Assembly (NCBI GenBank): GCA_963764625.1 | Contig: CAVXTH010000006.1 | Span: 608,001-672,000, forward strand | DNA: 64,000 nt | Origin: Candidatus Krumholzibacteriota bacterium | GTDB taxonomy: Bacteria > Krumholzibacteriota > Krumholzibacteriia > JAJRXK01 | Reading direction: 5' to 3' | Part shown: positions 27,061 to 61,294 of the stretch, in pieces | Layout of the letters: every line of letters begins with the position of its first letter | How positions within the stretch are numbered: the stretch's first letter is position 1 | The notes under the pieces: model-generated | Told to the model about the DNA's origin: nothing | Databases searched by the model: none | Seen by the model: only the letters and a program-made list of their open reading frames with translations | Made by a program: the position numbers and the translations under genes

Positions 27061-27888
27061 GCTCGATCGGGGCGATCGTGATCACGCGAAACGAGGCACG
27101 CAATATCGAGGCGTGCATGCAAGGGCTTGCCTTTTGTGCGCAACGGGTGATCGTGGATTCGTTCAGTGATGACGAAACGGTGGAGCTCGCCCGCCCCCTC
27201 GCTGACAAGATTTATCGACGCACATTCACCAGCTGGGGAGAGCAGAAGAACTGGGCGCTCGAGCAACTCGACACCGAGTGGGCGCTCATCGTCGACGCTG
27301 ACGAGCGCGTGGGAGAAGCGCTGTCCCGGGAGATCCAGGGGGCCGTAACTTCCGGCGCGAAGGATGCATATTGGATAAGGCGGAAGAATTACTTCTTCGG
27401 CCGTTGCATCCGCGGAGCGGGCTGGAATCGGGATAGAGTACTGCGGCTCATGCGCTTGCAGGCGGGGCGCTACGACGAACGACGGGTGCACGAGGAAATC
27501 CGGCTGCACCCGGGGCGGCGTGCGGGGGAACTCGAACACCGGCTGGATCATTTCTCCTATGAGGACTGGTCTTCCACTTTCGCCCGGATGTCGGCCTACA
27601 GTAGCCGCGGAGCGGCGGACGCACTGGCGGCGGGACAGCGCGCCACGATCTGGCGCCTGATCTCTCGCGCCCAGTGTGCGGTTCTGGAGGCAGTATCTCC
27701 TGCAGGGAGGCTTTCGGGACGGAGTGCACGGTCTGGTTCTCTGCGGGCTTGGCGCCTCTCAGCTTTTCTTGAAGCTGGCCAAGATGCGTTTGGGCGAGCT
27801 TCCCATGACCGCCGAGGACAATGGCGCGGGAGAAGTGGAAATCGTGCAAGGTCCCGCCCCGCGAGAGAGCGAGAAGGAGAACGAGTGA
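27057..27888 (+). pseudogene. GT2 LPS glycosyltransferase (WaaE/KdtX-like) split by a +1 frameshift near 27669 (real lesion or sequencing error)
   Basis: IT.NE..NI, VDS.S.D.T, QKNWAL, DADE, VHE in one frame. The family C-terminus RFWRQYLLQGGFRDG..GL lies in the +1 frame and ends at TGA 27888. Confidence 0.85.
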
Positions 27889-28667
27889 GGCTCAGGTTCA
27901 TGGCACGACGCACCTTCGTGGTGGCTCCCCTTCTCCTTGTGGCACTGAGCTTCGGTGCCCCCGGAAGATCGTACGCCTCGCCCGGTTTCGGAGCGGGAGA
28001 GGAAGCTGAGTTCAAGATCAGTTACGGAGTCATCAGCGCGGGAGAGGGGACTCTCTCCGTCCTGCCGTTTCTGGACTACGACGGATCGCACTGTTATCAC
28101 TTTCGGTCGCGCGCCCGCAGCAATCGCTTCTTCAGCGCCATCTTTCGCGTCCGGGACCAGGCCGACTCGTTCATGGATGCCGACTCTCTCGTCACGCGCT
28201 ACTTCAACAAGCATCTACGCGAGGGCAGTTTTCGGCGCGACGTGGAGATTCATTTCGATCAGAAGGCGAGGAAGGCGTATTTCCCGGACGGAACGGTCGA
28301 CGAGATCCGCCCGAATACCCAGGACGTTCTCTCGGCCTTCTTCAAAGTGCGCGCGATGAAGCTCGAAGTTGGAATGGAGTTCGACGTGCCCACTCACGGC
28401 GACAAGGAGATGTATCCGCTGAAAGTGAAAGTGCTTCGCCGCGAATCAGTGGAGAACGAAGCTCTGGGGGCTGTGGATTGCATCGTGGTGCAACCGTTCC
28501 TGGATGACGACGGCCTCTTCAAACACGAGGGTGATCTCTTGTTGTGGATGAGCGATGATGAGAGGCACATTCCAGTGAAGATGCGGGCCAACGTTCCGGT
28601 GGGAGCGATCGAAGCGGACCTGATTCGGTACACGCCTCCGGACGCCCCGCCGTCGAGTGGGAACTAA
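27885..28667 (+). CDS. DUF3108 domain protein (exported)
   Basis: Signal peptide, F..GE...F.ISYG...AG, F.VRD...S, QDVLSAFF, W.SDD.RHIPVK; GTG start overlaps the GT2 stop (alternative ATG 27900). Confidence 0.8.
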   Translation: MRLRFMARRTFVVAPLLLVALSFGAPGRSYASPGFGAGEEAEFKISYGVISAGEGTLSVLPFLDYDGSHCYHFRSRARSNRFFSAIFRVRDQADSFMDADSLVTRYFNKHLREGSFRRDVEIHFDQKARKAYFPDGTVDEIRPNTQDVLSAFFKVRAMKLEVGMEFDVPTHGDKEMYPLKVKVLRRESVENEALGAVDCIVVQPFLDDDGLFKHEGDLLLWMSDDERHIPVKMRANVPVGAIEADLIRYTPPDAPPSSGN

Positions 28668-28668
28668 C

Positions 28669-29952
28669 GTGCGCGAGCGATCCTGTGAGGTCCTCATTTT
28701 CGGTGGTGGGTGCGCGGGCCTCTGGATTCTGGAGAGGCTCGTGCAAGCGGGGTACGATGCCCTTTTGCTCGAGTCAACCGCTCTGGGCGCGGGGCAGAGT
28801 ATCCAGGCGCAGGGCATCATTCACGGCGGGGGCAAGTACGCCCTACGCGGGGTGCATGACTTCGAAGCGGTCAAGGCGATCCGCGAGATGCCGGAATGCT
28901 GGCGACGTCATTTGCGCGGCGAGGAAGAACCCGATCTCTCGGCCGCCCGCGTTCTCTCCGAATCCTGTCTCCTCTGGGTCCCCAGGGCCGGCTGGTGGTC
29001 GCGTTTGAGCGCCTACGCGTTCCTCCCGGTGGTCAAGAAGGCGGGCCTTCTCCATGCCGGCCCCATGAAGCTGGAGAGTAAAGAATGGCCACAGGCACTC
29101 CGCGGGTCGGCTCGGGTGGTCTATTCGATGGCGGAACCGGTGCTTGCCACCGGTTCGCTCCTGGCCGCCCTGGCGGCCCGCCATCCCCAGCGATTGCTCC
29201 GCTATGCGCCGGGGGCGGAGCTCAGACACTTGAGAATTGATCTGAAGGCAAATTGCCAACACATTATCACAATTGAAGATCCAGAGATAGAGGAACCCCT
29301 GCGGCTGCGGACGCGCGCCGTCGTCTACGCGGCGGGTGCTGGCAATGAGGCCCTCGTGAGACGATCGGCGGCGGGGGACGTACCCATGCAGAGACGCCCG
29401 CTGCGTATGATGATGCTGCGCGGGCCGCTTCCCACGCTGTACGGACACATGATTTCAGGGGGCAAGACGGCGATGACCGTGACCACCCATCCACTGGCGA
29501 AGGTGGACCGGCCAGGTGAGAGCGCAGAGCAGGTCTGGCAGGTGGGGGGGGAACTGGCGGAGCGGTTCGCCGAGCGGGGCGAGAGCGAGGAGCTGAGGGT
29601 CGAGTTCCGGCGTCACCTGTCCCGGTTCTTGCCAGGGTTGGACTTCTCGCGGGTGTCCATGGCGAGCTATTCCGCAGTCCGAGCGGAATCGAGGTCCCGC
29701 GATTTGCGGCGACCCAGCGGGGTTCAGGTGAAGAGGCTGGGGCCGCGCGCGCTGGTGACCTGGCCTACCAAGATGGCTCTGGCTCCGGTCCTCGCGCGCG
29801 AAGTCACCGCTGAAGTGAACCGGGACCTCGGCCCGCCGGCGCGGGAAGAACACGCAGCGCCGCAGCGGGGCCCGGAGGTCCCGTGGCCTCGACCCGAACT
29901 GGCCAAGTATCCCTGGGAAGAGGGAGAGCTGACGTGGCGCCCCGTGCTCTAG
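28669..29952 (+). CDS. FAD-dependent oxidoreductase (Pseudomonas PA4991-like)
   Basis: GGGCAGLW Rossmann motif, LG.GQS..AQGIIHGG.KYAL, AG.GNE, MQRRPL.M, VWQVGG.LAE, RAE, WPTK..LAP. Confidence 0.8.
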   Translation: MRERSCEVLIFGGGCAGLWILERLVQAGYDALLLESTALGAGQSIQAQGIIHGGGKYALRGVHDFEAVKAIREMPECWRRHLRGEEEPDLSAARVLSESCLLWVPRAGWWSRLSAYAFLPVVKKAGLLHAGPMKLESKEWPQALRGSARVVYSMAEPVLATGSLLAALAARHPQRLLRYAPGAELRHLRIDLKANCQHIITIEDPEIEEPLRLRTRAVVYAAGAGNEALVRRSAAGDVPMQRRPLRMMMLRGPLPTLYGHMISGGKTAMTVTTHPLAKVDRPGESAEQVWQVGGELAERFAERGESEELRVEFRRHLSRFLPGLDFSRVSMASYSAVRAESRSRDLRRPSGVQVKRLGPRALVTWPTKMALAPVLAREVTAEVNRDLGPPAREEHAAPQRGPEVPWPRPELAKYPWEEGELTWRPVL

Positions 29953-30725
29953 GAAGCACCGGAATGAGTGTCGGCAGAGTGGGCCTGGGCACGGTCAAAC
30001 TCGGTCGCAACTCCGGGGTGAAGTACCCCGAGGCCTTCGAGCTTCCGAGCGAGACTGAGGTGCGAGAATTCCTCGAGACATCGTGGGGGCTGGGGGTCCG
30101 TCTCTACGACACCGCCCCCGCCTACGGAAGCAGCGAAGAGCGCCTGGCGCCCTTCGTGGCGCGACACCGGAAGGAGATGATTCTCTGCACGAAGTGCGGA
30201 GAGGAGTTCGGGGCAGGCGGCTCGCGCTACGACTACTCAGGTCATTTCTTGCGCGCTTCGGTGGAAGCGAGTCTTCGCCGGCTGGGCACCGAGTATCTCG
30301 ATATTCTCCTCATTCACTCCAACGGGGATGATCGGCACATCCTGAACGAAACGGACGCAGTCGAGACGCTGTCGCAGTTGAAACGAGAGGGGAAGACCCG
30401 CGCCATCGGGATCTCGGCGAAGACTCCCGAGGGGATTCGCGGAGCCGCGGGTTCTCTAGATGTAGTCATGGCGCCCTATAGTCTCGCAAGGCCGCACTTG
30501 GCCGAGCCGCTGGAAGAAGTCCATGCCCAGGGCGTGGGCGTTCTTTCGATCAAGGGACTGCAGAGCGGTCATCTCGCCGTCGAGAGTGCGGATTTGGCGG
30601 AAGAAGCTCTGCGACACGTCTTTTCGCGGAGCTTTCTCGATGTGCTGATCCTCGGTACAATCAAGAGTGATCACCTGGCGCAGGCGGTGACGCTGGCCCG
30701 CGCTCTCGACGATTCCGGTCGGTGA
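29934..30725 (+). CDS. Aldo/keto reductase (PA4992-like)
   Basis: LGSTG..V..VGLGTVKLGR..GVKYP..F.LP, DTAPAYG.SEERL, TK.GE.F, HS.G.D. Confidence 0.85.
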   Translation: MAPRALGSTGMSVGRVGLGTVKLGRNSGVKYPEAFELPSETEVREFLETSWGLGVRLYDTAPAYGSSEERLAPFVARHRKEMILCTKCGEEFGAGGSRYDYSGHFLRASVEASLRRLGTEYLDILLIHSNGDDRHILNETDAVETLSQLKREGKTRAIGISAKTPEGIRGAAGSLDVVMAPYSLARPHLAEPLEEVHAQGVGVLSIKGLQSGHLAVESADLAEEALRHVFSRSFLDVLILGTIKSDHLAQAVTLARALDDSGR

Positions 30726-30726
30726 G

Positions 30727-32283
30727 ATGAACCACGAGATGAACCTCTTTCCCAATGCCCCAGCTCGCCCGAGCCTGAGCGAGGAGCGCCTTGCCATGGC
30801 CCTCTTCCTCATCTTTCTGTTGGGCCTGCTGCTGAGGCTCTTTGGACTCTCGCATCAAAGCCTCTGGATCGACGAGATGATCACGCTGCGCCAGGGCCTG
30901 ATTCCGGGGCACGGACTCTGGGAACAGTTCCTGGATGACTATCACAATCCCCTTCCCATGCTGGTCATCACCCAGCTCGCCCACCTGAGCCACTCGGAAA
31001 CGGTGCTGCGTTTTCCCGGCGCGGTATTGGGAGCCTTGAGCGTGCCGCTGATCTTCTTGCTCGGACGGCGTCTCGCGGGCGCGCGAACCGGGCTCTTCGC
31101 CGCACTCCTCTTGGCGGTGAGTCCGTTCCATCTCTTCCACTCGCAGGAGCTTCGCGGGTATGCGTGGATGATCTTCTTCGGACTGGCCACCACCCTGGTT
31201 GCGGTGAACGTTCGGAGGCGTTTGAGCTGGCCGCGCGCGCTTCTTCTCGCGCTCCTGGGCATCGCCACCACTCTGTGCAATCTCGAGGGTCTGTTCTGGA
31301 TGGGCAGTCTGGCGTTGGCCTGTCTTGCCGCCGGCCTGGTGAAACGCCGCGATCTGAAGACCTGGGGGGTGGCCTTCGGACTCATCGTCTTGGTCACTGC
31401 ACCGTGGTGGACCGGAACCCTGCACACGCATCACGAGGAGAGACTTCTGCCGGGGGAACAGACGGGAGTTCCCATGCGCGGGAGCACCACTCTGGGGAAA
31501 TGGGCGATTCCCTACACCGGCTTCGTACTCGCGATGGGAAATACCTTGGGCCCGACACCGCTCGAGCTTCACGCCGAGAGCGAGAGCACGATCGAAGGAA
31601 AGCTCGGTCTCGCGCGGAGGCATTGGCCCGCGGTGGCGGGTGTGGCCGGACTCGTTCTCGTGCTCGGTCTCAGCGGGATTCTCGCTCTGCGTTCGCGCGC
31701 CGGCCTTCTTCTGTTGTGGGTGATCGTGCCGGTCACAATCGCAATTTGGCTGGCGGCGAGAAACGTGAAGCCTCTGAACCCTCGCTACTGCATCGCTGCG
31801 CTGCCGGCCCTCATGCTGCTGTTCGCGGCGGGTCTGGATGCCCTGCCGAGAAAGACCGCCCTCATGGTGCTCATTGCGTGGCTCGCATTCTGCGGGGTGG
31901 CAGACTACCGCTACCACTTCATGCCCGAATACCAGCGGGAAGACGTACGGGGAGCCGTGCGATTGGTGGAAGAACGTGAAGGGCCCGACGACTTCATCAT
32001 CGCCCCGACTGTTTTCGGGGTGTTTCAGTGGTATTATCGAGGGAGGAATCCAGTCGAATCCTACTGGTGGTCCAAAGTGGATACCTCTCTCGCCGATGTT
32101 ACGCGCCGCCTGGATCTCCTGGATCCCGGACGCAAGTTCGCCTGGTACGTTCGCTGCCGCCCCTGGCACGATGACCCCAACGGTTGGCTGCTCGGGGCGT
32201 TCGAGGAAAACTGGCGCTACCGCGCCCTGTTTCAATTGCCCGGGGTCGAGGTCTATCTCTTCGAGCGCAGAGGAGCGCACTGA
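30727..32283 (+). CDS. GT-C family 39/83 membrane glycosyltransferase (ArnT/PMT-like)
   Basis: LR...L..QSLW.DE, E..LR.P, SPFH..HSQE.R.YA, PRY, about 11 TM helices. Confidence 0.8.
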   Translation: MNHEMNLFPNAPARPSLSEERLAMALFLIFLLGLLLRLFGLSHQSLWIDEMITLRQGLIPGHGLWEQFLDDYHNPLPMLVITQLAHLSHSETVLRFPGAVLGALSVPLIFLLGRRLAGARTGLFAALLLAVSPFHLFHSQELRGYAWMIFFGLATTLVAVNVRRRLSWPRALLLALLGIATTLCNLEGLFWMGSLALACLAAGLVKRRDLKTWGVAFGLIVLVTAPWWTGTLHTHHEERLLPGEQTGVPMRGSTTLGKWAIPYTGFVLAMGNTLGPTPLELHAESESTIEGKLGLARRHWPAVAGVAGLVLVLGLSGILALRSRAGLLLLWVIVPVTIAIWLAARNVKPLNPRYCIAALPALMLLFAAGLDALPRKTALMVLIAWLAFCGVADYRYHFMPEYQREDVRGAVRLVEEREGPDDFIIAPTVFGVFQWYYRGRNPVESYWWSKVDTSLADVTRRLDLLDPGRKFAWYVRCRPWHDDPNGWLLGAFEENWRYRALFQLPGVEVYLFERRGAH

Positions 32284-32927
32284 TGGTGGCCCGCGCTCTC
32301 GGCGCCGAGTTGGCCAAGACGCACTGGTTCTATGAACCGGTCAAACGGCTCTTCGACCTCGTTGCCGCCACCCTGGGCCTGATCTTTTTCCTGCCCCAAG
32401 TTCCTTTCCTCGCTCTACTGGTGAAACTGGAATCACCGGGTCCCTTTCTGTTCCGGCAGGAGCGGGTGGGCAAGGGCGGCCGGCATTTCTTCTGCTTCAA
32501 GATCCGTTCGATGGTGGTCAACGCCGAGGCGCTCAAGCAGAGTTTGTCGCATCTCAACGAGGCCGACGGGGCCGCATTCAAGATCCGTCAAGATCCGCGC
32601 ATCACTCGCGTGGGACAGTTCGTACGGCGTTCGTCGCTCGACGAATTCCCCCAGCTTCTCAATGTCCTGCGCGGGGAGATGTCCATCGTGGGCCCGCGCC
32701 CTCAGGTTCCCGAGGAAGTGGCCCAGTACCGCCCGGAGCATCGAGCGCGTCTGGAAGTAAAACCGGGCCTCACCTGTCTCTGGCAGGTCAGCGGACGCAA
32801 CGATCTCGATTTTGAGGAGTGGATGCGCATGGACCGCGAATACGTGCGGAGGCGGGGACTGAAACTGGATCTGTGGATCCTCCTGCACACCCTTCCCGCC
32901 GTGATCGCGCGCAAGGGCGCGTATTGA
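32283..32927 (+). CDS. Polyprenyl-phosphate sugar phosphotransferase (Bac_transf family)
   Basis: KRLFDL, F.QERVG, KIRSM, DPRIT.VG.F.R.SSLDEFPQL.NVL.GEMS.VGPRP, KPGLT.LWQVSGR. Confidence 0.93.
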   Translation: MVARALGAELAKTHWFYEPVKRLFDLVAATLGLIFFLPQVPFLALLVKLESPGPFLFRQERVGKGGRHFFCFKIRSMVVNAEALKQSLSHLNEADGAAFKIRQDPRITRVGQFVRRSSLDEFPQLLNVLRGEMSIVGPRPQVPEEVAQYRPEHRARLEVKPGLTCLWQVSGRNDLDFEEWMRMDREYVRRRGLKLDLWILLHTLPAVIARKGAY

Positions 32928-32975
32928 GATGGTTCGAGGGCAAGTTCTGAACTCACCACCAAGGCCGTCTCCCTC

Positions 32976-33893
32976 ATGAGCGATGCCACTTTCGCTTCCG
33001 GACGTCTCTCGACCTGGCTGCGCTTCACGCGGCCCTTCACCCTTTGGCCCCCGGGCCTGGGAATGATCAGCGGTGGATTGACCGCCATGGGCGCCTATCC
33101 GCGCGAGAGCTTCAGCGGGGACATTCTGGTCAAGCTCGTCCTGGGCGCCGTGATGGCCGCGGTCCTCAACGCGGCCAGCAACGGGATCAATCAGATCTAC
33201 GACCTCAAAGTCGACCGGGTGAACAAGCCGGAGAGAGCGCTGGTGACCGGAGCGATGAGCGTAGGGGAGGCCAAGATCCTCTCGGCCGTTCTGTACCTCG
33301 TGGCAATGATCCTGGCGGCGCTGATCAACATCGAGTGCTTGCTCTTGGCCGCGGTCGCGGCGGTGTTGACCTGGGTGTATTCCGCGCCTCCCTTGCGCAG
33401 CAAGCGACACGGCTGGTGGGCCAACCTGACCATCGCGGTTCCCCGTGGGCTCTTGCTCAAGGTGTGCGGTTGGGCCTCGGTGAAAACCTTCATGGCCTTC
33501 GAACCGTGGTACATAGGGTCTATCTTCTTTCTCTTTCTGCTGGGAGCCTCCAGTACAAAGGATTTCGCGGATATGGAAGGAGATCGCCTGGGCGGGTGCG
33601 AAACGCTTCCTCTTCGCTACGGAGTTCATCGCGCGGCCTGGATGATCGCACCTTCCTTCGTGCTTCCGTTCATCATGCTCCCGCTGGGCACCGAGCTTGG
33701 AATTCTTACCGGCAATCCCCTTCTGCTGAATCTGTTGGGACTGGGTCTGGCGGCCTGGGGCTGTTATACGGTGTATCTTCTAGTACGGCGTCCCGATGAG
33801 CTCGCGACCACCGAGAATCATCCTTCCTGGACCCACATGTACCTCATGATGATGGCGCTGCAGGTGGGCTTCGCCATCTCGTACCTGTTCTGA
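32976..33893 (+). CDS. UbiA superfamily prenyltransferase (HPT/ChlG/DGGGPS-like clade)
   Basis: RP.TL, NQIYD...D..NKP.R, YS.PPLR.K, KDF.D.EGD..GG..TLP; 8-9 TM helices. Confidence 0.9.
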   Translation: MSDATFASGRLSTWLRFTRPFTLWPPGLGMISGGLTAMGAYPRESFSGDILVKLVLGAVMAAVLNAASNGINQIYDLKVDRVNKPERALVTGAMSVGEAKILSAVLYLVAMILAALINIECLLLAAVAAVLTWVYSAPPLRSKRHGWWANLTIAVPRGLLLKVCGWASVKTFMAFEPWYIGSIFFLFLLGASSTKDFADMEGDRLGGCETLPLRYGVHRAAWMIAPSFVLPFIMLPLGTELGILTGNPLLLNLLGLGLAAWGCYTVYLLVRRPDELATTENHPSWTHMYLMMMALQVGFAISYLF

Positions 33894-33907
33894 ACGAGGG
33901 GAGAGTC

Positions 33908-34291
33908 GTGATCGTCGGCCTGGGAATCGACCTCTGCGAAGTGAGACGCCTGCGCGATCTGGAAGAACGCTATGGCGAGCGATTCCTGCGCCGCATCTTC
34001 ACGGACAAAGAGCGGGACCGCTGCGCGGGACGGCGCCACCACGAATGCCTCGCCGGACGGTTCGCGGCCAAAGAAGCGGCGCTGAAGGCCCTGGGCACCG
34101 GACTCTCGCAGGGCATCGCCTGGCGTGACGTCGAGTTGACGCGGGGGGAATACCAAGCTCCCACCATCCTCTTTCATCGGCGGGCCCGCGAGATCTTCGA
34201 GCGTCTGGGGGGGAAGCGGGTGCAGGTTTCGATCACGCACGACGGAGGCAACGCGGCCGCAGTCGTGATTCTCGAAGGAGAGAGCTCATGA
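33908..34291 (+). CDS. acpS: Holo-[acyl-carrier-protein] synthase
   Basis: MI.GLGIDL, RF..RIFT..E, LAGRFAAKEA.LKALGTG, VSITHD...A.AVVI. Confidence 0.95.
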   Translation: MIVGLGIDLCEVRRLRDLEERYGERFLRRIFTDKERDRCAGRRHHECLAGRFAAKEAALKALGTGLSQGIAWRDVELTRGEYQAPTILFHRRAREIFERLGGKRVQVSITHDGGNAAAVVILEGESS

Positions 34292-34959
34292 ATCGAGACT
34301 CTCTGGCTCTCCTGGTCTCGGGGGCCTGGCTGCTGGTGGTCCTGGTCATCGCCGAGCTCGCGCGGCGGAGAGGCATGGCGCGGGTGGACACGCGGCGCCT
34401 GGTTCACGTGGCCATCGCGAGCTGGATCGTTCCCACCTTCTTGCTCTACGAGAGCTGGCCGTGGGCCGCTGCGCCGGCCTTCGCCTTCGTGATCGTCAAC
34501 GCCCTGAGTCTCCGCTTCGATCTCATCAAGAGCGTGGAAATCCGCGAGCGGAGCCTGGGGACGGTATTCTTTCCCCTCAGCGTGGGCATCCTGACCATCT
34601 TGGGCTGGCACGATCCCTGGCGGCCAGTGGCCGCGGCCGGAGTGTTGAGCATGGGGTGGGGAGACGCTTCGGCCTCGTTCGTGGGCCGCCGTTGGGGTCG
34701 TCGTCTCTACCATGTCGCCGGTCACCAAAGGAGCGTGGAGGGTTCTCTGACCATGCTCGTGATCAGTTGGCTGGCTGTGCTCGTGGCGGGCGCTCTCTTG
34801 GGGAGGGGAGTCGATCCCGGTTGGGCCGAGGCGGGCCTGCTCGCGGCCCTGGTGGCCACCGTGCTCGAAGGAATCTCGTTGTTCGGCGCGGACAATCTTC
34901 TGGTGCCCCTGTCCACCTCCGCCATGCTGGCCCTCATGCACGGGAGGCTGTGGGTGTGA
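34288..34959 (+). CDS. CTP-dependent prenol/phytol/farnesol kinase (VTE5/FOLK/dolichol kinase family)
   Basis: TRRLVH, LGTV.FP, GWGDA.AS.VG..WG, RS.EGS, DNL.VP. Confidence 0.85.
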   Translation: MNRDSLALLVSGAWLLVVLVIAELARRRGMARVDTRRLVHVAIASWIVPTFLLYESWPWAAAPAFAFVIVNALSLRFDLIKSVEIRERSLGTVFFPLSVGILTILGWHDPWRPVAAAGVLSMGWGDASASFVGRRWGRRLYHVAGHQRSVEGSLTMLVISWLAVLVAGALLGRGVDPGWAEAGLLAALVATVLEGISLFGADNLLVPLSTSAMLALMHGRLWV

Positions 34960-36005
34960 TGGAGACCTCGAATTTCGCTCCGGTGGACCGGGTGTTTCTC
35001 ACCGGGGGCACGGGCTATTTGGGCAAGCACTTGGTGCGCGAGTTTCTCGAAGCCGGCTACGAACTGCTGTTACTCACGCGCGAGAATTCCGATCGCAGCG
35101 GCCTGCCGCTAAAGGGTGTCCGCTACGTGGAAGGTGACTTGCTCGATCCTGCTAGCTACGCGCACGTGCTGGGCGAAGTGGGAGCGGTGGTGCATTCGGC
35201 CGGCCTGGTCAGCCGCTGGGAGAAGGACAAAGACCGTTTCGATCGGGTGAATGTCGAAGGCCTCGACGGATTGCTACGCGCCTGTACCCAGGCCCAGGTG
35301 GCGCGCGTGGTGTACACCTCTTCGTTCTTCGTGCTGGGTCCGGGAGAGGACGCCGCGCCGCGCGACGAGACGCAGCGCATGCCGGTCGCTGGCTTCAACG
35401 ATTACGACCGAACCAAGATTCTGGCGGAAAAATGCGTGGGCGCGCACCGACGCCAAGGACTCGACGTCATCAGTGTGCTGCCCACCGTGATCTACGGTCC
35501 CGGTGCGAGAACCCAGGGGAACCACGTGGCGGAGATTCTGGAAGATCTGCTTGCGGGAAAGCTCCCGGGCGTGATCGGAAGTGGTGCGCAGGTCTGGAAC
35601 TACGTCTTCGTGCGCGACGCCGCGCGCGGACATCGGCTGGCTCTGGAGAAGGGGGAAGCCTGCGGCGACTATCTTCTGGGAGGAGAGAACGCGAGCATGC
35701 TGGAGTTTCTGGACCTCGCAGCCGAGATCGGTGAAGTCTCTGCCCCCAAGAGAAAGGTCCCCTTCAGGGTTCTGATGGCGGTGGCGCGTCTGCAGATGTT
35801 GAGAGCTCGTCTCACCGGCAAGGCTCCCGAACTCACCAGTGGCATGGTGCGAAGTTATCAGTACGATTGGGCGTTCAATGACGCGAAGGCGCGCCGCGAG
35901 CTGGGCTACGAGGGTAGAGACCTCCACGATGGTCTCAGTGAGACCATCGGATGGTTGCGCGCGGGCGGAGTCTCTCCGTTTCGCGAACGGTGGGAATTCC
36001 AGTGA
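34959..36005 (+). CDS. Extended SDR, farnesol dehydrogenase (FLDH)/HpnA-like
   Basis: TGGTGYLG, H.A.LV..W..D..RF..VNV.GL, YTSSFF.LG, Y..TK, YGPG..T.GN.V, G.LPG.IG.G, YLLGGENAS, KA..ELGY..R.L..GL. Confidence 0.8.
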   Translation: METSNFAPVDRVFLTGGTGYLGKHLVREFLEAGYELLLLTRENSDRSGLPLKGVRYVEGDLLDPASYAHVLGEVGAVVHSAGLVSRWEKDKDRFDRVNVEGLDGLLRACTQAQVARVVYTSSFFVLGPGEDAAPRDETQRMPVAGFNDYDRTKILAEKCVGAHRRQGLDVISVLPTVIYGPGARTQGNHVAEILEDLLAGKLPGVIGSGAQVWNYVFVRDAARGHRLALEKGEACGDYLLGGENASMLEFLDLAAEIGEVSAPKRKVPFRVLMAVARLQMLRARLTGKAPELTSGMVRSYQYDWAFNDAKARRELGYEGRDLHDGLSETIGWLRAGGVSPFRERWEFQ

Positions 36006-36748
36006 ATGCCCTCCCCGCCTTCAGCTATGGCTTCGATTGGCACGCGCTCGCTCTCCCTCTGCTGGGGAACCTGCTGCTGGCGGTCGTGGCCTGGCGCCGA
36101 TCGCTGGTCAGCCGCAGTGGCTTTTGGGGCGGAGCGCTGTTGGGAAGCTGGATCCTGATCCTGGGCGGCGGGGGAGCCTACCTGCTCCTGTGCGCATTCT
36201 TTGTCCTGGGGACCTCCGCGACTCGGCTGGGCTATCGGCGGAAGGCGGAGCGAGGACTGGCCCAGGAGGAGCAGGGACGCCGGGGGGCCCGTCACGTGCT
36301 CGCGAATTGCGGCGTCGGGTTGCTTCTGGTCACGCTCTATCCCCGTCATTTCTCGTTCGCCCTCGGCGCGGCGTATGTTGCCTCCTTCGCCACCGCGACC
36401 GCGGACACCCTGGGCAGCGAGGTCGGTCAGTTGTGGGGCCGGCGGACCTTCGACCTCTTGCGCTTCCGCCCAGTCCCGCGCGGCAGCGAGGGCGGAGTCT
36501 CGCTGGAGGGAACCCTCGCGGGGGCGCTGGGGGCCGTGATTCTGGCGCTGCTGGGCTCCTTTCTGCGATTCTATCCACTTTCGCTGTGCTGGATTCCCGC
36601 CCTGGCCGGGGTTCTCGGAAGCGCCCTGGAGAGCCTCCTGGGGAGTTCAGCGAGGCTGCGCGCGGGACTGGACAACGAGCTGCTGAACTTTCTGAACACG
36701 GTGTTTGGCGCCATTCTGGCCTGGACCGCGCTCCAGATGCTGTATTGA
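36002..36748 (+). CDS. DUF92 membrane protein (VTE6 phytyl-phosphate kinase-like)
   Basis: FF..G...T..G..RK...G.AQ...G.RG..HV.AN, ADT..SE.G, VPRG.EGGVSLEGT.AG, ES.LG, NE..NF.NT. Confidence 0.88.
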   Translation: MNALPAFSYGFDWHALALPLLGNLLLAVVAWRRSLVSRSGFWGGALLGSWILILGGGGAYLLLCAFFVLGTSATRLGYRRKAERGLAQEEQGRRGARHVLANCGVGLLLVTLYPRHFSFALGAAYVASFATATADTLGSEVGQLWGRRTFDLLRFRPVPRGSEGGVSLEGTLAGALGAVILALLGSFLRFYPLSLCWIPALAGVLGSALESLLGSSARLRAGLDNELLNFLNTVFGAILAWTALQMLY

Positions 36749-36770
36749 GGCATCCCGGCCGGCGGTTTGC

Positions 36771-36799
36771 TTGAGTTTTCCCCAAGGGAATGCTAGACT
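36771..36799 (+). promoter_or_regulatory. Putative extended -10 sigma70 promoter of the EPS locus
   Basis: TTGAGT-N17-TAGACT with TG at 36791-36792. Confidence 0.45.
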
Positions 36800-37145
36800 T
36801 GAACTTCGATCAAAGAGGGATCCGCGGCCGGTCCTACGCCAGACCCGCGTCGACTTCCGATCTCTCACATAGGAACGCAACTTTGCTTCCGCACCAAAGG
36901 AGTGCCCGTAGAGCTTGGTTAACGCGGTTCCCTCGTCGTGGGGAACGTTGACATCCGGGGGGGACGTAGCTAGCTACCGAAGGCAGGAATCCGTGAGGAG
37001 AATCTGCGCGGTCTGGTAGAACCCTTGGTGAGAGCTCCAGGTGCACGGTCTCAACGATCGTAAACCCGCTGTCATCTCGCTGAACTTTTGCCTCTTCAAG
37101 GCGAACCCTCGTGCCATGGTTGGGGCGGGGGAGGAGTGTAGTGTC

Positions 37146-37961
37146 ATGTCCCTCGAGGTTTACTCCGCGAAACGCTCGCTTCTCAGGCTCTGGCCGGTAC
37201 TCTTGCTATTCGGTTTGGGCGCCTGCGGTTCGAGTGCCTACACCGACGTCGATCTCCAGAAGGATCTCGACGTTCCCAGTGCGAGTCATCTGAGTCCGGA
37301 GGCTCAGACCTTCGCGGCCGCGCCGGATACCATGCAAGTGCCGCCGGTCTACCGCATCGGCAGCGGCGATGTGCTCGAAGTGGTCTTCTTCACCCATCCG
37401 GACCAGAACCGCTTCGTGACGGTACGGCCGGACGGGCGGATCACGCTGCCCTACGTGGGCGATTTGATGGCGCGGGGGAAGGAGCCCACGAAGCTTGCGA
37501 GCGAGATCCAGAACGACTACTCGAGAGTGCTGGTCGATCCCAAAGTCGATATCCTGGTGAACAAGATCGGCGGGAAGTACTACGTGCTGGGGGAAGTGAA
37601 GAACGCGAACGAGTTCAGTTACGAGCGGCCTCTCACTCTTCTACAGGCTATTGCCGGTGCTGGTGGGTACAGTAACGACGCACGGCTCTCCAATTTCGTT
37701 CTGATTCGGGTCGACGGGAAAGGCGGACGTTTCGCTGCTGTCTTCAACATGCGCGAGTACATGAGCCAACGAAAAAAACGAGGGGACATCTACATCCAGC
37801 CGGATGACATCGTCTGGGTGCCCAAGGACAACATCAGCCGCTGGGACAATGCAGCCCGAAAGTTGTTTGGCACCGTCGTGCACGCAGAGGATATGGTCTA
37901 CAAGGGGCTGCAGATAGTCAAATTCGACGAGGTCTACCCGGGCAGATATTACGCTCCTTGA
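37146..37961 (+). CDS. wza: Polysaccharide export lipoprotein (Wza/OPX family)
   Basis: Lipobox LGAC, YRIG.GD.L.V, VRPDG.ITLP.VG, P.V.I.V, SLBB domain TLLQAIA.AGG, P.DIV.VP. Confidence 0.88.
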   Translation: MSLEVYSAKRSLLRLWPVLLLFGLGACGSSAYTDVDLQKDLDVPSASHLSPEAQTFAAAPDTMQVPPVYRIGSGDVLEVVFFTHPDQNRFVTVRPDGRITLPYVGDLMARGKEPTKLASEIQNDYSRVLVDPKVDILVNKIGGKYYVLGEVKNANEFSYERPLTLLQAIAGAGGYSNDARLSNFVLIRVDGKGGRFAAVFNMREYMSQRKKRGDIYIQPDDIVWVPKDNISRWDNAARKLFGTVVHAEDMVYKGLQIVKFDEVYPGRYYAP

Positions 37962-37991
37962 GATCGCAACGCCGATTGGGAGAAGGAAGCC

Positions 37992-39437
37992 ATGTCAGGA
38001 CTCTACAGCCAAGGACCGGTACAGGGGGAGCGCGATACCACGATGCGCGACCTTCTGTCGGTCGTGTTCAAGCGCAAGTGGCTCATCATCATCTTTTTCC
38101 TGGGAACCTCGGTCCTGGTGGCCCTGAAGGTGGTCACCACTCCGGAGACCTGGTCGGCCGACGCCACCCTCATGTTACAGCGGCAGGGACGAACTAGTGT
38201 GATGGAGAACAGTTCCAGGGCCTTGCCTTGGGTGGAGGTGATGGAGTCGGAGGTCGAAATCGCCCGCAGTGTCCCGGTGCTGCAATTGGCGCGCGCCAAA
38301 CTCAAGGAACCCACGAAGGACTTTCCCGAGGGTATCGATCTGAGCATGGGCGCTCTGGGCGCACAAATCAAATCGGGAGGCGTCGGAGAGTCAAACGTGG
38401 TGTACATCACAAGCATCGGCGATCAGCCCAAGAGAGCCATCCGCATAGCCAACAAGGTTGCTGAAGCCTATGTCGAATACCATAAGAAGATGTTCGCGCT
38501 TCCCGATGCGGCAAGCGCAGTCAAGGCGCAGACGGATTCGACTCTCAAGGCTCTATCGGACTTGCAGAATGAGCGGCAGCGAATCTTGAATGAGGCGGGG
38601 TTCACCGATCTCAAAGCCGAAGAGACGAATCTCCACTCGTTGCGGCGCGAACAGCGCAGCAACCTCAGTCAGGCGGAACTGGAGATAAGTACTCTTCGTG
38701 AACAGGTAGCGGCCATACCAAAGGATGTTAATGGAATTGGCAGCGATCTTCCTTTCAATATACCGAGAGGATACGCGCAGCAGGAACTCATGATGAATGC
38801 GGTAGAAAGATACCGTAGGAGTCAACATGATCTTGAGGAACTGAAATCTCAGTATACGGAAGAGCATCCCAAGGTCAAATCCGCGGAACTCGAACTCCAA
38901 GAGCGTCGCAAGGCTCTGGAGAGTTCTATCCAGCAATTAGTTTCGCTCAAGACTGAGGAACTCAAGATCGCGGAGGCCAAGCGCGATGGAATTATGCACC
39001 AGATTCAGAAGATCGACGCGCAGCTGGCCAGGATGCCCGATTTTAATCGCAAGGTGAGCTTCCTCGATACCCAAATCGACAGCGCCGAGAAGCAGTACGC
39101 CAAGCTGAACTCGAAGTACGTGGACACCCAGCTGAGCCAGGTGAGCTACCAGGACTACGGCGTTTCGCTGCTCTCTCCGGCGGTGTCCGCCTACAAGAAC
39201 ACCCGCGGCGATCTGGTCCGCATGGCCCTGGCGCCCCTCCTGAGTCTGTTGGCCGGCATCGGTCTGGCCTTCTATCTGGAAAATCTGGATCACTCGATGA
39301 AGACGCGCGAGGACGTGGAGCATCATCTCGAGATTCCCGTCCTGGCCAGTTTCCCCGACGTGGACGAGGGGGAATCGGATCTCGAGCCCCGGACGAGGCG
39401 AACCCCCTTCTGGAAAGGCCGCCGGGGCGGCCGCTGA
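37992..39437 (+). CDS. Polysaccharide co-polymerase (Wzz/GumC, Wzc membrane part)
   Basis: RD.L.V.FKRKW.II, E.EI.RS, long coiled coil with YT.EHP.V, second TM helix then E.LDHS.KT.EDVE..L.IPVLAS.P. Confidence 0.88.
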   Translation: MSGLYSQGPVQGERDTTMRDLLSVVFKRKWLIIIFFLGTSVLVALKVVTTPETWSADATLMLQRQGRTSVMENSSRALPWVEVMESEVEIARSVPVLQLARAKLKEPTKDFPEGIDLSMGALGAQIKSGGVGESNVVYITSIGDQPKRAIRIANKVAEAYVEYHKKMFALPDAASAVKAQTDSTLKALSDLQNERQRILNEAGFTDLKAEETNLHSLRREQRSNLSQAELEISTLREQVAAIPKDVNGIGSDLPFNIPRGYAQQELMMNAVERYRRSQHDLEELKSQYTEEHPKVKSAELELQERRKALESSIQQLVSLKTEELKIAEAKRDGIMHQIQKIDAQLARMPDFNRKVSFLDTQIDSAEKQYAKLNSKYVDTQLSQVSYQDYGVSLLSPAVSAYKNTRGDLVRMALAPLLSLLAGIGLAFYLENLDHSMKTREDVEHHLEIPVLASFPDVDEGESDLEPRTRRTPFWKGRRGGR

Positions 39438-39487
39438 ACCGAGCACGCGATTTGGCCGGGGAAGTACCGGCCCGGGAACGGTAGACG

Positions 39488-41008
39488 ATGTATCGGCACC
39501 ATTTCGGCCTGCGGGAGAAGCCCTTTCAGATCGCTCCCAGTCCGAGGTTCCTTTTTCCCTCCGAGACGCACGACGAAAGTCGCGCGCGCATTCTCTATGG
39601 GATCGAGGACAACCGCGGGTTCGTCGTGGTCTACGGCAGGGTCGGCCTGGGAAAGACCACGGTGTTGCTCTCGGTGCTCGAGGAACTCGACGCCAAGACC
39701 CGAACTGCACTTCTCTATCAGCCCATTTCCAGCTTTCACGATCTGCTGCGCATGACTGCTCATGAGTTCGGTCTGGGCAGCGAGAACCGGGATGAGGTGA
39801 ATCTCATCTGGGATCTGAACGAGTTTTTCATCCAGAGGCTGTCCGAGAGTGAGAAATGCGTGCTCATCGTCGACGAGGCGCAGAATCTCAGCCTCGAGAT
39901 CCTGGAGAAGCTTCGGACGCTCAGCAATCTGCAAACCGAGAGCGCCTCGCTCCTGCAAATCGTTCTGGTGGGTCAACCCGAGCTGTACGACAAGCTCTCC
40001 GATCCCCGGTTATTGCAGCTGCGGCAGCGGGTGGGCGTGTGGCACGAAATCGAGTCCCTCAATCGCGAGGAAACCACGGACTATATCTTGCATCGCCTGC
40101 AGCGGGCCGGTGCGCGCCGCCCCAAGGAAATCTTCTCGGTGAGAGTGTGCGAGCGCGTTCATGAGTTGACCGGAGGCGTCCCCAGAGTCATCAACCAGGT
40201 ATGCGATACAGCGCTGATGATCGCTTACGGCAAGGAATCGCCGCAAGTCGAGGTGGAGGATGTGGTGGAGGCGGCCCACGAGTTACACCTGGTGGAGGAA
40301 GAGCCCAAGCCTCGCGAGACGCAGCTAGCGAAGGAACGTCCCACTGAGGAACTCAAGAAGAGTCCGGTGTGGGCTCGACTCAGCTTCGCCGCGGTCATCT
40401 TGCTCGTCGTTCTGGGAGCGATTTGGATATTCTTCGGGGGAAATTTGCGGCTCGCGCTCCGGGGCGACCGCATGGCTACCGGGAGCGGCATCGTGGACGC
40501 GGTGGCCGCTTCACCCGCGACCGATTCCACCGCCGCGGCGCAGAATCTCCCCGCGGTCCAGAAGGAGGAGATGCGGGTTCCGAAGGAGTCGGGCAAGGAG
40601 ACTCCGGCCACGAGTCCCGGCGACGAAATCTCTCCGGAGAGAATGGAGCGCATGAAGGCCCACCTGGAGAACGTTCGCAGTTTGCGCGCGGCCGGGAAAC
40701 CCGTCTATACGGTGCATTTGAATTCGTTCAAAGAGGTGGCGCGCGCGCAGGAATTCGCTAGTGATATCGCGAGGGAACAAAACTGGGAGCAGCCGGTATT
40801 CATGGAGCGGAGCGGGCGTAATCCGGTCTGGTACCGGGTGTTCGCCGGAGAGTTCGGGCGGAGCCGCGATGCCCTGGCCTGGATCGAACAACTCAAAGTT
40901 GAACGAAGAGTGGTCTACGCCAATCTCCAGCAGCTGAGCCGTGATGTCGAGGTGCTCGTGCCGACCGAACCGGATTCGCGCGTGTCCCTGAATGGAGTGG
41001 ACGGATGA
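39488..41008 (+). CDS. ExeA/GspA-type AAA ATPase with TM helix and C-terminal SPOR-like domain
   Basis: MY..HFGL.EKPF, G.VG.GKTT, DEAQNL, LQIVLVGQPEL, QL.QR, GVPR.IN..CD; C-terminal YTVH..SF and WYRV..G.F. Confidence 0.88.
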   Translation: MYRHHFGLREKPFQIAPSPRFLFPSETHDESRARILYGIEDNRGFVVVYGRVGLGKTTVLLSVLEELDAKTRTALLYQPISSFHDLLRMTAHEFGLGSENRDEVNLIWDLNEFFIQRLSESEKCVLIVDEAQNLSLEILEKLRTLSNLQTESASLLQIVLVGQPELYDKLSDPRLLQLRQRVGVWHEIESLNREETTDYILHRLQRAGARRPKEIFSVRVCERVHELTGGVPRVINQVCDTALMIAYGKESPQVEVEDVVEAAHELHLVEEEPKPRETQLAKERPTEELKKSPVWARLSFAAVILLVVLGAIWIFFGGNLRLALRGDRMATGSGIVDAVAASPATDSTAAAQNLPAVQKEEMRVPKESGKETPATSPGDEISPERMERMKAHLENVRSLRAAGKPVYTVHLNSFKEVARAQEFASDIAREQNWEQPVFMERSGRNPVWYRVFAGEFGRSRDALAWIEQLKVERRVVYANLQQLSRDVEVLVPTEPDSRVSLNGVDG

Positions 41009-41835
41009 GCAGCATTCGTGATGCCCTCAAGCGTGCCGAGCGGGAACGACTGCGGCGGCAGGAAGAGGCGAAAACATTGAGTGAAGCGCGTACCTCGCAG
41101 GAGGAGTCCGGGGCCTTGTCCACCGAGGCGGATGGCCAGCGCAGCGCTACCGACCCGCGCCGCGAGCTCAAGGTGGTCGACAGTCAGCGGATCTTCACGG
41201 TCGAAGTGCCGATGGGTTTCACGGAAGAATTGGCGCTGTTCCGTCAGGGAGTGGAAGCGGCGGTCCCCAAGCCCAGGCGTTCGTTTATCCTCAGCGGCGC
41301 CACCGCCGGCGAAGGAGTCACCACGCTGACCACCTTCCTGGGGACGAGTCTCGCGGTGCGCGACGGCAAGAAGACGGTAATCATCGACGCCAGTTTCAAG
41401 TCACCGCGATTCTCGCGCATCTTCGGCCTTCTCGGTCGTCCGGGCCTCTCCGACTACTGCAGCGGTTCAGCCGAGTTGGCGGAGGTCCTCGCCAAGACCG
41501 ATTGCGATCAACTCTTCCTCATGGGAGTGGGAACCGAGCTCTATAACCCTTCCCTCATTCTCAGTTCCGATCGTGCTCGCAGCCTCGCTTCAGAGCTCAC
41601 GCAACGCTTCGACTACGTGCTGTTCGACACCGGCGCCGTGCTGAACCACGCCGAGACCTCCATGCTCTCCTCCAGCGTCGACGGAGTGGTGTTGATCGTC
41701 CGCTCGGGCAAAACGAAACGCGAGGTTCTCCTCAAGGCGGAAAAACTCATTCGCTTCAGCGGTGGCCGGGTGATCGGCTCGGTCCTGAACCGTCGTCAGT
41801 ATCCCATACCCGATTCGATCTACAAGCGACTCTAG
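41005..41835 (+). CDS. CpsD/CapB family BY-kinase-like protein
   Basis: MS.I.DAL..A, GEG.TT, IIDA, P.GLSD, FDYV.FD, DGV.LIVR..KT, G.VLNRR.YPIP..IY. Confidence 0.85.
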   Translation: MSSIRDALKRAERERLRRQEEAKTLSEARTSQEESGALSTEADGQRSATDPRRELKVVDSQRIFTVEVPMGFTEELALFRQGVEAAVPKPRRSFILSGATAGEGVTTLTTFLGTSLAVRDGKKTVIIDASFKSPRFSRIFGLLGRPGLSDYCSGSAELAEVLAKTDCDQLFLMGVGTELYNPSLILSSDRARSLASELTQRFDYVLFDTGAVLNHAETSMLSSSVDGVVLIVRSGKTKREVLLKAEKLIRFSGGRVIGSVLNRRQYPIPDSIYKRL

Positions 41836-41851
41836 GCCGGCGAAAGAAGCG

Positions 41852-45761: not shown

Positions 45762-45773
45762 GAGGTTGATTCC

Positions 45774-46145
45774 ATGAGGAATGTCGTGGTCCTGCTAGCG
45801 TGCTTAGGGCTCATGGTGACCGCCCAGGTCTTCTGGAAGACCGCACTGGGAAGAGTGGGAGTGGTGGACGTCATGTCCAGCAGCCTTCCCGGAAGGGTGT
45901 TGTTGTTGGCAAAGTCGTGGCGGATCGTGGTGGGTTTGGTCATGTTCGGCCTGGCGACCCTCTTGTGGTTCGATCTGCTCAGCCGCATGGAACTCTCACT
46001 CCTGTATCCCTTCATGAGTCTGAGTTACGTCATCGCGTTCTTTGCCGGCTGGATGTTTCTCGGCGAGCATCCTCAGCCGCTACGGCTGGTGGGAATCGTC
46101 GTCATCATGGTGGGCATCGCTCTCGTCGCGCGGAGTAGTCCTTGA
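45774..46145 (+). CDS. EamA/SMR small membrane protein (ArnE/ArnF-like Und-P-sugar flippase)
   Basis: 123 aa, four TM helices, AQ..WK, W...LSR.ELS..YP..SLSYV, FLGE, GI..I..G. Confidence 0.82.
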   Translation: MRNVVVLLACLGLMVTAQVFWKTALGRVGVVDVMSSSLPGRVLLLAKSWRIVVGLVMFGLATLLWFDLLSRMELSLLYPFMSLSYVIAFFAGWMFLGEHPQPLRLVGIVVIMVGIALVARSSP

Positions 46146-46164
46146 GGTGAGTCTGGAAGCTCTC

Positions 46165-50614: not shown

Positions 50615-50637
50615 CTTCTTCTCCTAGGTGTGTCGAA

Positions 50638-60376: not shown

Positions 60377-60381
60377 GAGGA

Positions 60382-61284: not shown

Positions 61285-61294
61285 TTCACGTGGC

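Follow-up and report, generated by a model that had tools for sequence, protein, structure and literature searches.

A conserved bacterial unit of a candidate prenol kinase, a DUF92 protein and an orphan UbiA-family prenyltransferase, found among envelope glycan genes

The closest described relatives of the locus reported here are the phytol salvage enzymes of plants and cyanobacteria (VTE5/FOLK, VTE6, VTE2/HPT and ChlG), which combine kinases of the CTP-transferase fold with UbiA-family prenyltransferases. To go by the relevant passages of three papers, the characterized kinases are FOLK, VTE5 and VTE6 in plants and PolK in Plasmodium only (PMC9782597, PMC10849223, PMC13022625), and a section of the last, a 2026 review, places all known prenol kinases in photosynthetic organisms and a related parasite (PMC13022625). 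The role of VTE6 was first suggested by prokaryotic gene clustering, as part of one review recounts (PMC9782597). Here we analyze a 64,000-nucleotide stretch of a Candidatus Krumholzibacteriota genome (assembly GCA_963764625.1, contig CAVXTH010000006.1, positions 608,001 to 672,000), referred to as the window. At positions 32976-36748 it carries genes of the same three families, with the same logical order of steps: a UbiA prenyltransferase, a kinase-like membrane protein and a DUF92 protein, accompanied by a holo-ACP synthase gene (acpS) and a short-chain dehydrogenase/reductase (SDR) gene. Our comparisons support the conclusion that the kinase-like gene, DUF92 and UbiA form a conserved functional unit in Krumholzibacteriota, Eisenbacteria and Acidobacteriota.

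The likeness to phytol salvage extends to the UbiA protein, which comes from the same broad branch as homogentisate phytyltransferase (HPT) and ChlG. In contrast to the organisms with phytol salvage, the hosts here are non-phototrophs, with no Mg-chelatase, 4-hydroxyphenylpyruvate dioxygenase (HPPD) or geranylgeranyl reductase above cut-off. Their genes form clusters or fusions in an envelope-glycan context, and the UbiA protein passes no cut-off for HPT, ChlG or BchG. A second related system is found in archaea, where COG0170-COG1836 fusions (e.g. Mbar_A3310) have the same two domains in the same order. The part of the paper dealing with them predicts a cytidylyltransferase-like fold for archaeal DUF92/COG1836, describes the Sec59-like fusion in Methanosarcina, places arCOG02245 next to uppS and proposes that the protein takes part in isoprenoid metabolism at a kinase step (Makarova et al. 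2015, PMC5898192). The genes studied here are, in contrast, bacterial and coupled to a specific orphan UbiA protein and an HpnA-like SDR, and the window has the two domains as separate genes with the SDR between them.

Two further systems are more distant. The eukaryotic dolichol route contains DHRSX, SRD5A3 and dolichol kinase; DHRSX is a classical SDR, not an extended one. According to a section of one paper, this route pairs an SDR for polyprenol and polyprenal with a CTP-dependent kinase of the same superfamily in the service of glycan assembly (PMC11250103), whereas the window has a second kinase-like enzyme and a UbiA protein in addition. The mycobacterial decaprenyl-phosphoribose pathway (Rv3806c, DprE1/DprE2 and GT-C arabinosyltransferases) likewise places a UbiA-family enzyme, oxidoreductases and GT-C enzymes in a glycan locus. 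However, its likeness to the window's UbiA protein is weak (rank 15 by fold, 13-15% identity at ranks 15-16), and its oxidoreductases belong to other families.

The five genes of the window are the following:

32976-33893, plus strand: UbiA prenyltransferase, 305 residues (PF01040, 137.6 bits against a cut-off of 34.2, E = 5.7e-40)
33908-34291, plus strand: acpS, holo-ACP synthase, 127 residues (TIGR00516, 99.4 bits against a cut-off of 59.8)
34288-34959, plus strand: kinase-like membrane protein of the COG0170 type, 223 residues (PF01148 as sole match, E = 0.002, 18.5 bits against a cut-off of 24)
34956-36005, plus strand: extended SDR, HpnA-like, 349 residues (PF01370, E = 7.7e-40)
36002-36748, plus strand: DUF92 (COG1836) membrane protein, 248 residues (PF01940, 170.2 bits against a cut-off of 27.5; an alternative ATG at 35951 gives 265 residues)

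The original prediction, made from the window's sequence, had described five genes on one strand with overlapping stop and start codons, and the open reading frame (ORF) calls and the letters at the junctions bear this out. The acpS and kinase-like genes overlap in ATGA (34288-34291), the kinase-like and SDR genes in GTGA (34956-34959, with an alternative SDR start ATG at 34959), and the SDR and DUF92 genes in GTGA (36002-36005). The UbiA stop codon and the GTG start of acpS are 14 nucleotides apart, and the stretch GAGGGGAG, read from the sequence, precedes the acpS start. All motifs that had been quoted, as putative likenesses to HPT for UbiA and to plant farnesol dehydrogenase (FLDH) for the SDR, are present in the translations, NQIYD..D..NKP and KDFADMEGD in UbiA and YTSSFF.LG, GKLPGVIGSG, GENAS and LVSRW..D..RF..VNVEGL in the SDR. 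A consensus scan of 26500-37300 gave no promoter-like sites (shuffle mean 1.1) and seven terminator-like sites (shuffle mean 8.0); since neither number is above chance, the limits of the operon are not informed by the scan.

The five-gene arrangement exceeds chance, because its order is kept in all seven syntenic loci of the family and its core recurs in other phyla. Our sample of the class comprised 41 genomes, ten from the window's family and 31 from other families. UbiA orthologues are present in nine of the ten family genomes (65-89% identity) and in none of the 31 others, where the best match is about 33% identical. In the seven syntenic loci, which represent five further genera or species of this family, the block from an upstream GT2+DUF3108 gene to DUF92 keeps its order. 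The two loci of one genus (g4, genomes G008 and G009) are without the SDR between the kinase-like gene and DUF92, with the other genes kept. A DUF92 match above cut-off was found in 8/41 genomes, all eight of which also have the UbiA orthologue. In genome G007 the UbiA gene lies at a contig end and no DUF92 match was found, and G003 is without UbiA and DUF92 and also without the GT-C glycosyltransferase gene of the upstream block. No SDR orthologue was found at E ≤ 1e-20 anywhere in the genomes G003, G007, G008 and G009.

Beyond the family, we surveyed the best 80 of 560 confirmed UbiA loci from a genome scan. They are mostly from Acidobacteriota (Vicinamibacterales and others), with some from Krumholzibacteriota and Eisenbacteria. 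DUF92 lies near UbiA in 74 of the 80 loci: four are from Krumholzibacteria and have the window's order, 68 have DUF92 immediately ahead of UbiA in the same orientation (gap -21 to +153 nucleotides), one has it 2.8 kb upstream and one is convergent. The six loci without DUF92 consist of two with almost no flanking sequence and four of the Eisenbacteria type. A single open frame holds both the kinase-like domain, at its N-terminus, and DUF92 in 65 of the 70 loci outside Krumholzibacteria, as found with a profile of the window's kinase whose training alignment contained 11 of these 65 frames. Among the five loci without a detected fusion, three are cut by contig ends and two are unfused. The window's kinase-like protein also aligns with the N-terminal half of one fusion (29% identity over 131 residues, E = 8e-4), and the motif GD..A...G is common to both.

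The pattern extends to the level of whole genomes. In a sample of 251 acidobacterial genomes, with a threshold of E ≤ 1e-60 for UbiA orthologues, UbiA was found in 77 and DUF92 in 107; every one of the 77 genomes with UbiA also has DUF92 (adjacent in 50), and neither gene was found in 144. When two unpublished genomes (G069 and G197) are excluded, the numbers become 75/249 for UbiA, 105/249 for DUF92, 75/75 for both and 48/75 for adjacency. In Eisenbacteria, all three genomes checked have a lone UbiA gene and, elsewhere, a separate kinase-SDR-DUF92 cluster in the order of the window. The original prediction had treated the genes as one system; when their co-occurrence was checked in other genomes, the core of kinase-like gene, DUF92 and UbiA was found to recur across three phyla. 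We regard it as a conserved functional unit because gene fusion, adjacency, and co-presence and co-absence in genomes all agree.

The UbiA protein passes the PF01040 cut-off and is a member of the UbiA prenyltransferase superfamily. Its best NCBIfam matches (PRK12884 121 bits, ChlG 115, BchG 99.5, digeranylgeranylglyceryl phosphate synthase (DGGGPS) 97.8 and HPT 97.1) all remain under their cut-offs. This holds for the ChlG and BchG models (PRK07566 115.1 vs 313; TIGR02056 71.5 vs 436; TIGR01476 99.5 vs 212), for DGGGPS (PRK12882 97.8 vs 296; PRK12883 80.1 vs 353) and for HPT (PRK12887 97.1 vs 226). Sequence searches of the PDB returned DGGGPS (6m31, E = 3.6e-22) and chlorophyll synthase (9sau, E = 8.4e-17). 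With an AlphaFold2 model (pLDDT 91.2), Foldseek ranked the same DGGGPS structure first (E = 2.1e-12, 26% identity), and the phosphoribosyltransferase of the mycobacterial pathway, decaprenyl-phosphate phosphoribosyltransferase (DPPR synthase, 8j8j), 15th with 15% identity. No match of the DPPR-synthase type is among the five PDB sequence matches or the best 25 of the 32 NCBIfam rows. Both aspartate-rich motifs are invariant in 22 orthologues (Asn72, Gln73, Asp76 and Asp80; Lys195, Asp196, Asp199 and Asp203). Judged by sequence and by its predicted structure, the UbiA protein is an orphan, nearest to archaeal DGGGPS and chlorophyll synthase, and appears to group with the C20-using enzymes DGGGPS, ChlG and HPT rather than with DPPR synthase. 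The subfamily is large: of 8000 proteins scored, 5399 reach E ≤ 1e-10, and identity is 58% or more throughout the best 120.

The kinase-like protein is more divergent. Neither the single protein nor a 19-sequence profile gave a PDB match by sequence at E ≤ 10, and six of the 19 family members match PF01148 (best E = 3.6e-05). JGI annotates homologues as 'phytol kinase' or 'dolichol kinase', and the nearest ESM Atlas clusters are labeled 'diacylglycerol/polyprenol kinase family' (0.97). The AlphaFold2 model (pLDDT 92.8) was aligned with VIA-align, which placed the CDP-diacylglycerol synthase CdsA first (4q2e, Z 8.2, 171 residues aligned) and CarS third (5guf, Z 7.2). These Z values are modest for a helical protein, and CdsA and CarS are its sole whole-domain fold matches. 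Foldseek gave CdsA with probabilities of 0.75-0.97 at E of about 0.1, and nothing at E ≤ 0.001. The predicted structure of the kinase-like protein has the intramembrane CTP-binding fold of CdsA and CarS, and its invariant residues include His40, Asn71, Gly125-Asp126, Gly133, Glu194 and Asp202-Asn203. By analogy with phytol and dolichol kinases, we propose that it is a prenol kinase.

The DUF92 protein, encoded by a single-copy gene in the genome, passes the PF01940 cut-off, and its TIGR00297 score (159.4 bits) is under the cut-off of 205.85. Across 17 sequences from three phyla, Asp135, Thr136, Ser139, Glu140, Gly142, Glu210, Asn229 and Asn232 are invariant, so the motif D-T-x-x-S-E-x-G is kept in all three. 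The analogy with plant VTE6 leads us to propose that it is a prenyl-phosphate kinase.

We hypothesize that the two CTP-fold enzymes make a prenyl diphosphate from a free isoprenoid alcohol, and that UbiA transfers the prenyl group to an acceptor in the biogenesis of an envelope glycoconjugate or lipid; we put the probability of this reading at roughly one half. The COG0170-type enzyme would phosphorylate the free alcohol with CTP, the DUF92 protein would add the second phosphate, as VTE6 does in plants, and UbiA would alkylate the acceptor with the resulting prenyl diphosphate, in keeping with the chemistry of its family. This hypothesis is supported by the UbiA protein, whose nearest relatives use prenyl diphosphates and whose aspartate motifs are intact, by the CdsA/CarS fold of the kinase model, by the precedent of VTE5, VTE6 and FOLK in plants, and by one acidobacterial locus (L135) in which UbiA directly follows a polyprenyl-diphosphate synthase gene. 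It is based on gene presence, conservation, fusion, co-occurrence, fold and intact motifs, from which we infer all of the catalytic steps.

By comparison with DGGGPS and chlorophyll synthase, an oxygen nucleophile is the most likely acceptor, and the product would probably be a minor lipid, a lipid anchor or a carrier for building an envelope glycoconjugate, because the module is always found among glycan or nucleotide-sugar genes. The HpnA-like SDR may be an optional helper that acts on the lipid (aldehyde/alcohol) or on the acceptor. In the genome, whose assembly is 96.4% complete, we found no match to the Mg-chelatase subunit BchH, and no geranylgeranylglyceryl phosphate synthase (GGGPS, PF01884), HPPD (best TIGR01263 score 34 bits vs 277) or geranylgeranyl reductase above cut-off. 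Geranylgeranylglyceryl phosphate, homogentisate and chlorophyllide are therefore unsupported as acceptors, since GGGPS, HPPD and BchH were not found above cut-off. The absence of photosynthesis genes, originally noted for the window, holds across the genome for BchH, the chlorophyll-pathway marker.

Several observations weigh against a prenyl diphosphate route that feeds UbiA. The genome contains IspH, a marker of the methylerythritol phosphate (MEP) pathway, three trans-prenyl diphosphate synthases and two UppS-like genes. With its own MEP marker and three synthases, salvage is not required for isoprenoid supply; the organism makes its own prenyl diphosphates, which leaves the need for a kinase route unexplained. 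In 30 of the 251 acidobacterial genomes DUF92 occurs but this UbiA does not, which means that the kinases can also have other uses. UbiA is unlinked from the kinases in 27 of the 77 acidobacterial genomes that have it and in all three Eisenbacteria genomes. In four of five unlinked genomes examined, it is the kinase fusion and not UbiA that keeps the nucleotide-sugar genes and the HpnA-like SDR beside it. Related genomes are also not independent counts, and the co-occurrence figures describe a pattern and are no test. Finally, the kinase-like protein is under its Pfam cut-off and its fold matches are cytidylyltransferases, so that the choice between a kinase and a cytidylyltransferase rests on analogy.

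The strongest rival explanation, which we consider possible although on the unlikely side, assigns the kinase-like protein, DUF92 and the SDR to the supply of a lipid carrier. They would make or recycle a phosphate of the polyprenyl or dolichyl type for the glycan machinery, much as eukaryotes proceed from polyprenol through polyprenal and dolichal to dolichol and its kinase DOLK, with UbiA loosely connected to them. It draws on the surroundings of the module, which in the window are as follows:

26886-28667, plus strand: GT2+DUF3108, an ORF of 593 residues (Pfam/NCBIfam)
28657-29952, plus strand: FAD-dependent (DAO-type) oxidoreductase (Pfam/NCBIfam)
29883-30725, plus strand: aldo-keto reductase (Pfam/NCBIfam)
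30727-32283, plus strand: GT-C/PMT_2 glycosyltransferase (Pfam/NCBIfam)
32184-32927, plus strand: polyprenyl-phosphate sugar-phosphate transferase (true start probably later)
37041-37961, plus strand: polysaccharide export protein (PF02563)
37992-39437, plus strand: chain-length determinant protein (PF02706)
39488-41008, plus strand: PEP-CTERM-type ATPase with SPOR domain (TIGR03015, 272.8 bits, below the cut-off of 324.5)
41005-41835, plus strand: tyrosine autokinase (TIGR01007, 101.9 bits, below the cut-off of 108)

These genes are context and not part of the core. The block at 26886-32927 is upstream of UbiA in all seven family loci, and the export block at 37041-41835 is syntenic within the family with partial exceptions. 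Among the 80 surveyed loci, the upstream block is not beside UbiA outside Krumholzibacteria, and acpS and the window's glycan genes are seen solely in the Krumholzibacteria loci. The oxidase and the reductase beside GT2 and GT-C look like a system for epimerization of a lipid-linked sugar before periplasmic transfer.

In Krumholzibacteria, the module has genes for a polyprenyl-phosphate sugar-phosphate transferase, GT-C, GT2 and export on its flanks, and other lineages have sugar genes of their own next to it. In 56 acidobacterial loci with at least 14 kb of sequence each, an SDR of the epimerase/reductase type lies upstream in all 56, LptD in 52, a dTDP-glucose 4,6-dehydratase in 39 (448 bits vs 365 in locus L036), an HpnA-like SDR in 33 and an RmlA-like thymidylyltransferase in 11 (478 bits vs 320 in locus L076). 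Downstream of the kinase-SDR-DUF92 cluster, Eisenbacteria have either a nucleotide-sugar dehydrogenase with epimerases or an acetyltransferase together with an aminotransferase and a dehydratase-like SDR. The retention of sugar genes by the kinase fusion in four of the five unlinked genomes fits a carrier role as well, as do the position of archaeal DUF92 beside uppS, reported in the relevant part of one paper (PMC5898192), and the action of an SDR on polyprenol and dolichal in dolichol synthesis, described in a section of another (PMC11250103).

A carrier needs one phosphate, however, and this leaves unexplained why a second enzyme is fused to the first, and why DUF92 is present wherever UbiA is (77/77 acidobacterial genomes and all eight complete cases in the class). 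The acidobacterial operon is moreover without a glycosyltransferase or flippase, and its LptD, ClpB, GrpE and M48 neighbors suggest that the context is partly housekeeping synteny. In each lineage examined, nucleotide-sugar or glycan genes accompany the kinase genes, and this context speaks for an envelope glycolipid or carrier lipid more than for plain salvage. The original prediction had not included this constant company.

The original prediction had gone further and described a four-step operon, in which the SDR reduces a scavenged prenal, the two kinases make the diphosphate and UbiA uses it, with environmental phytol or farnesol as a possible source. This is a special case of the prenyl diphosphate hypothesis that needs the SDR as a prenal reductase, and we consider it unlikely. 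The kinase-SDR-DUF92 order is kept in Krumholzibacteria and Eisenbacteria, and the SDR is of the HpnA or aldehyde-reductase-like kind and not of the GalE kind. Its NCBIfam score for HpnA (TIGR03466, 212.4 bits) is below the cut-off of 367.65, yet HpnA is the best family by far (SdmB 136.5, GalE 60.9); the best PDB match is a 'putative oxidoreductase' (3wj7, E = 8.5e-41). The catalytic residues are present, as the translation carries TGGTGYLG, the serine in YTSSFF, and YDRTK (YxxxK). Any phytol would also have to come from outside, since the genome gave neither a Mg-chelatase match nor a geranylgeranyl reductase above cut-off.

On the other hand, three family genomes (G007, G008 and G009) are without an SDR orthologue at the threshold given above, two of which (G008 and G009) retain the kinase, DUF92 and UbiA, and in long acidobacterial loci the HpnA-like SDR is present in just 33 of 56. 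For these reasons the SDR is an HpnA-like accessory member and not a fixed fourth step. The genome's own isoprenoid supply adds to the case against the four-step scheme. Of the operon as first described, the kinase-like, DUF92 and UbiA genes stand as a conserved unit, whereas the SDR as a fixed step and salvage as a requirement are not supported.

A more specific form of the prenyl diphosphate hypothesis concerns the product. We speculate, as a decidedly long shot, that the module makes a new class of bacterial envelope lipid, in which UbiA links a C15-C20 isoprenoid chain through oxygen to a small phosphorylated or sugar-derived head group; the lipid would serve as the membrane anchor or primer of a 6-deoxy-sugar glycan and be moenomycin-like or archaeol-like. 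It is just as speculative that free prenol, perhaps environmental phytol or geranylgeraniol derived from plant litter, is re-activated to give the donor. Krumholzibacteriota and Eisenbacteria are members of the FCB group (Fibrobacterota, Chlorobiota and Bacteroidota). If true, such a lipid would occur in about a third of Acidobacteriota, as judged from this sample, and in several phyla of the FCB group.

An archaeal-type ether lipid, with UbiA as a DGGGPS and the two CTP-fold proteins as cytidylyltransferases like CarS and CdsA that would yield a CDP-activated isoprenoid lipid, seems very unlikely to us. DGGGPS is the best match of UbiA by sequence and fold, CdsA and CarS are the sole whole-domain matches of the kinase-like model, and DGGGPS-like genes are widespread in bacteria of the FCB group, with a role that is unclear without glycerol-1-phosphate dehydrogenase according to part of one study (PMC6431249). 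Yet the partner GGGPS was found above cut-off in none of six module-bearing genomes, UbiA falls far short of the DGGGPS cut-offs, neither CTP-fold protein matches a CarS family at E ≤ 0.01, and the two fused domains correspond to the VTE5/VTE6 pair.

Where a UbiA-family gene is found in a glycan context, it is usually of the DPPR-synthase kind. Even so, and although the Krumholzibacteria block has FAD oxidoreductase, aldo-keto reductase, SDR and GT-C genes, we give little credence to a scheme in which UbiA moves a sugar phosphate from a sugar diphosphate (e.g. phosphoribosyl diphosphate) to a kinase-made polyprenyl phosphate, for epimerization by the oxidoreductases and use by GT-C, given the low rank and identity of 8j8j (15% vs 26% for DGGGPS), the lack of DPPR-type entries among the sequence matches considered above, and the finding that, in the best 80 loci, the FAD oxidoreductase, aldo-keto reductase and GT-C genes adjoin the module in Krumholzibacteria alone.

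Our literature search found no published description of a bacterial kinase-DUF92-UbiA cluster. The novelty originally claimed is narrowed by the COG0170-COG1836 link and fusion, which a part of one paper already presents for archaea (PMC5898192). What is known is the plant-type pair of prenol kinases; what is new is the pair in non-phototrophs, tied to an orphan UbiA protein and glycan genes. The pair is often fused and is tied to this prenyltransferase in abundant non-phototrophic bacteria of soil and sediment (77 of the 251 Acidobacteriota sampled). If the prenyl diphosphate hypothesis is true, re-activation of prenols would be a widespread bacterial process, and these bacteria would have a prenylated envelope lipid or carrier that is new to science. 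The fused bacterial enzyme could then serve as a compact tool to convert added prenols into prenyl diphosphates in engineered hosts.

We read acpS as a housekeeping passenger that belongs to the operon in this family only, because it is the genome's sole match to PF01648 (phosphopantetheinyl transferase) and is part of the operon in Krumholzibacteria alone. It adjoins UbiA in all seven family loci and, among the 80 surveyed, solely in the Krumholzibacteria loci L023, L024, L026 and L028.

Some loci have peculiarities of their own. The L135 locus, in which the acidobacterial UbiA gene is unlinked from the kinases, has the order GT2, lipid A deacylase PagL, polyprenyl-diphosphate synthase and UbiA (3681-7423), which hints at a link of UbiA to lipid A or outer-membrane remodeling. 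As a general pattern, a polyprenyl-diphosphate synthase beside unlinked UbiA was rejected, as it was found in one of 25 loci. In the acidobacterial locus L040 (10124-12386), DUF92 is unfused, a CitMHS-type transporter and a PepSY protein lie between DUF92 and UbiA, and a second UbiA-family gene (PF01040, E = 5.4e-56) is just downstream. Apparent SDR-kinase-DUF92 triple fusions (open frames of 790-897 residues) were rejected, since the SDR match is in another frame and the L033 frame has DUF92 only in Pfam. The Eisenbacteria UbiA gene lies between a large C25 (gingipain-like) peptidase gene, upstream on the opposite strand, and a conserved downstream ORF of about 250 residues (L030:9965-11675, L034:9500-11682, L029:5042-6668). 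The ORF of about 255 residues at L030:10908-11675 matches no Pfam family and has no likeness to the kinase or DUF92.

In the window itself, the first ORF of the glycan block (593 residues) aligns with relatives as two pieces, GT2 and DUF3108, and may therefore be two genes. The genes at 37041-43063 are exopolysaccharide genes of the PEP-CTERM/XrtA type, all below the NCBIfam equivalog cut-offs. No RNA runs matching 32100-37100 were listed. DNA nearly identical to this segment is present in public salt-marsh metagenome runs; three of them contain at least half of its sampled words, and they are not independent evidence, since one may be the source sample. Farther downstream, the AT skew is -0.28 and -0.23 within 44001-48000, and from 48001 onward the G+C content drops from about 0.62 to 0.52-0.58. 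The composition shift in 44001-64000 may mark a foreign or differently expressed region.

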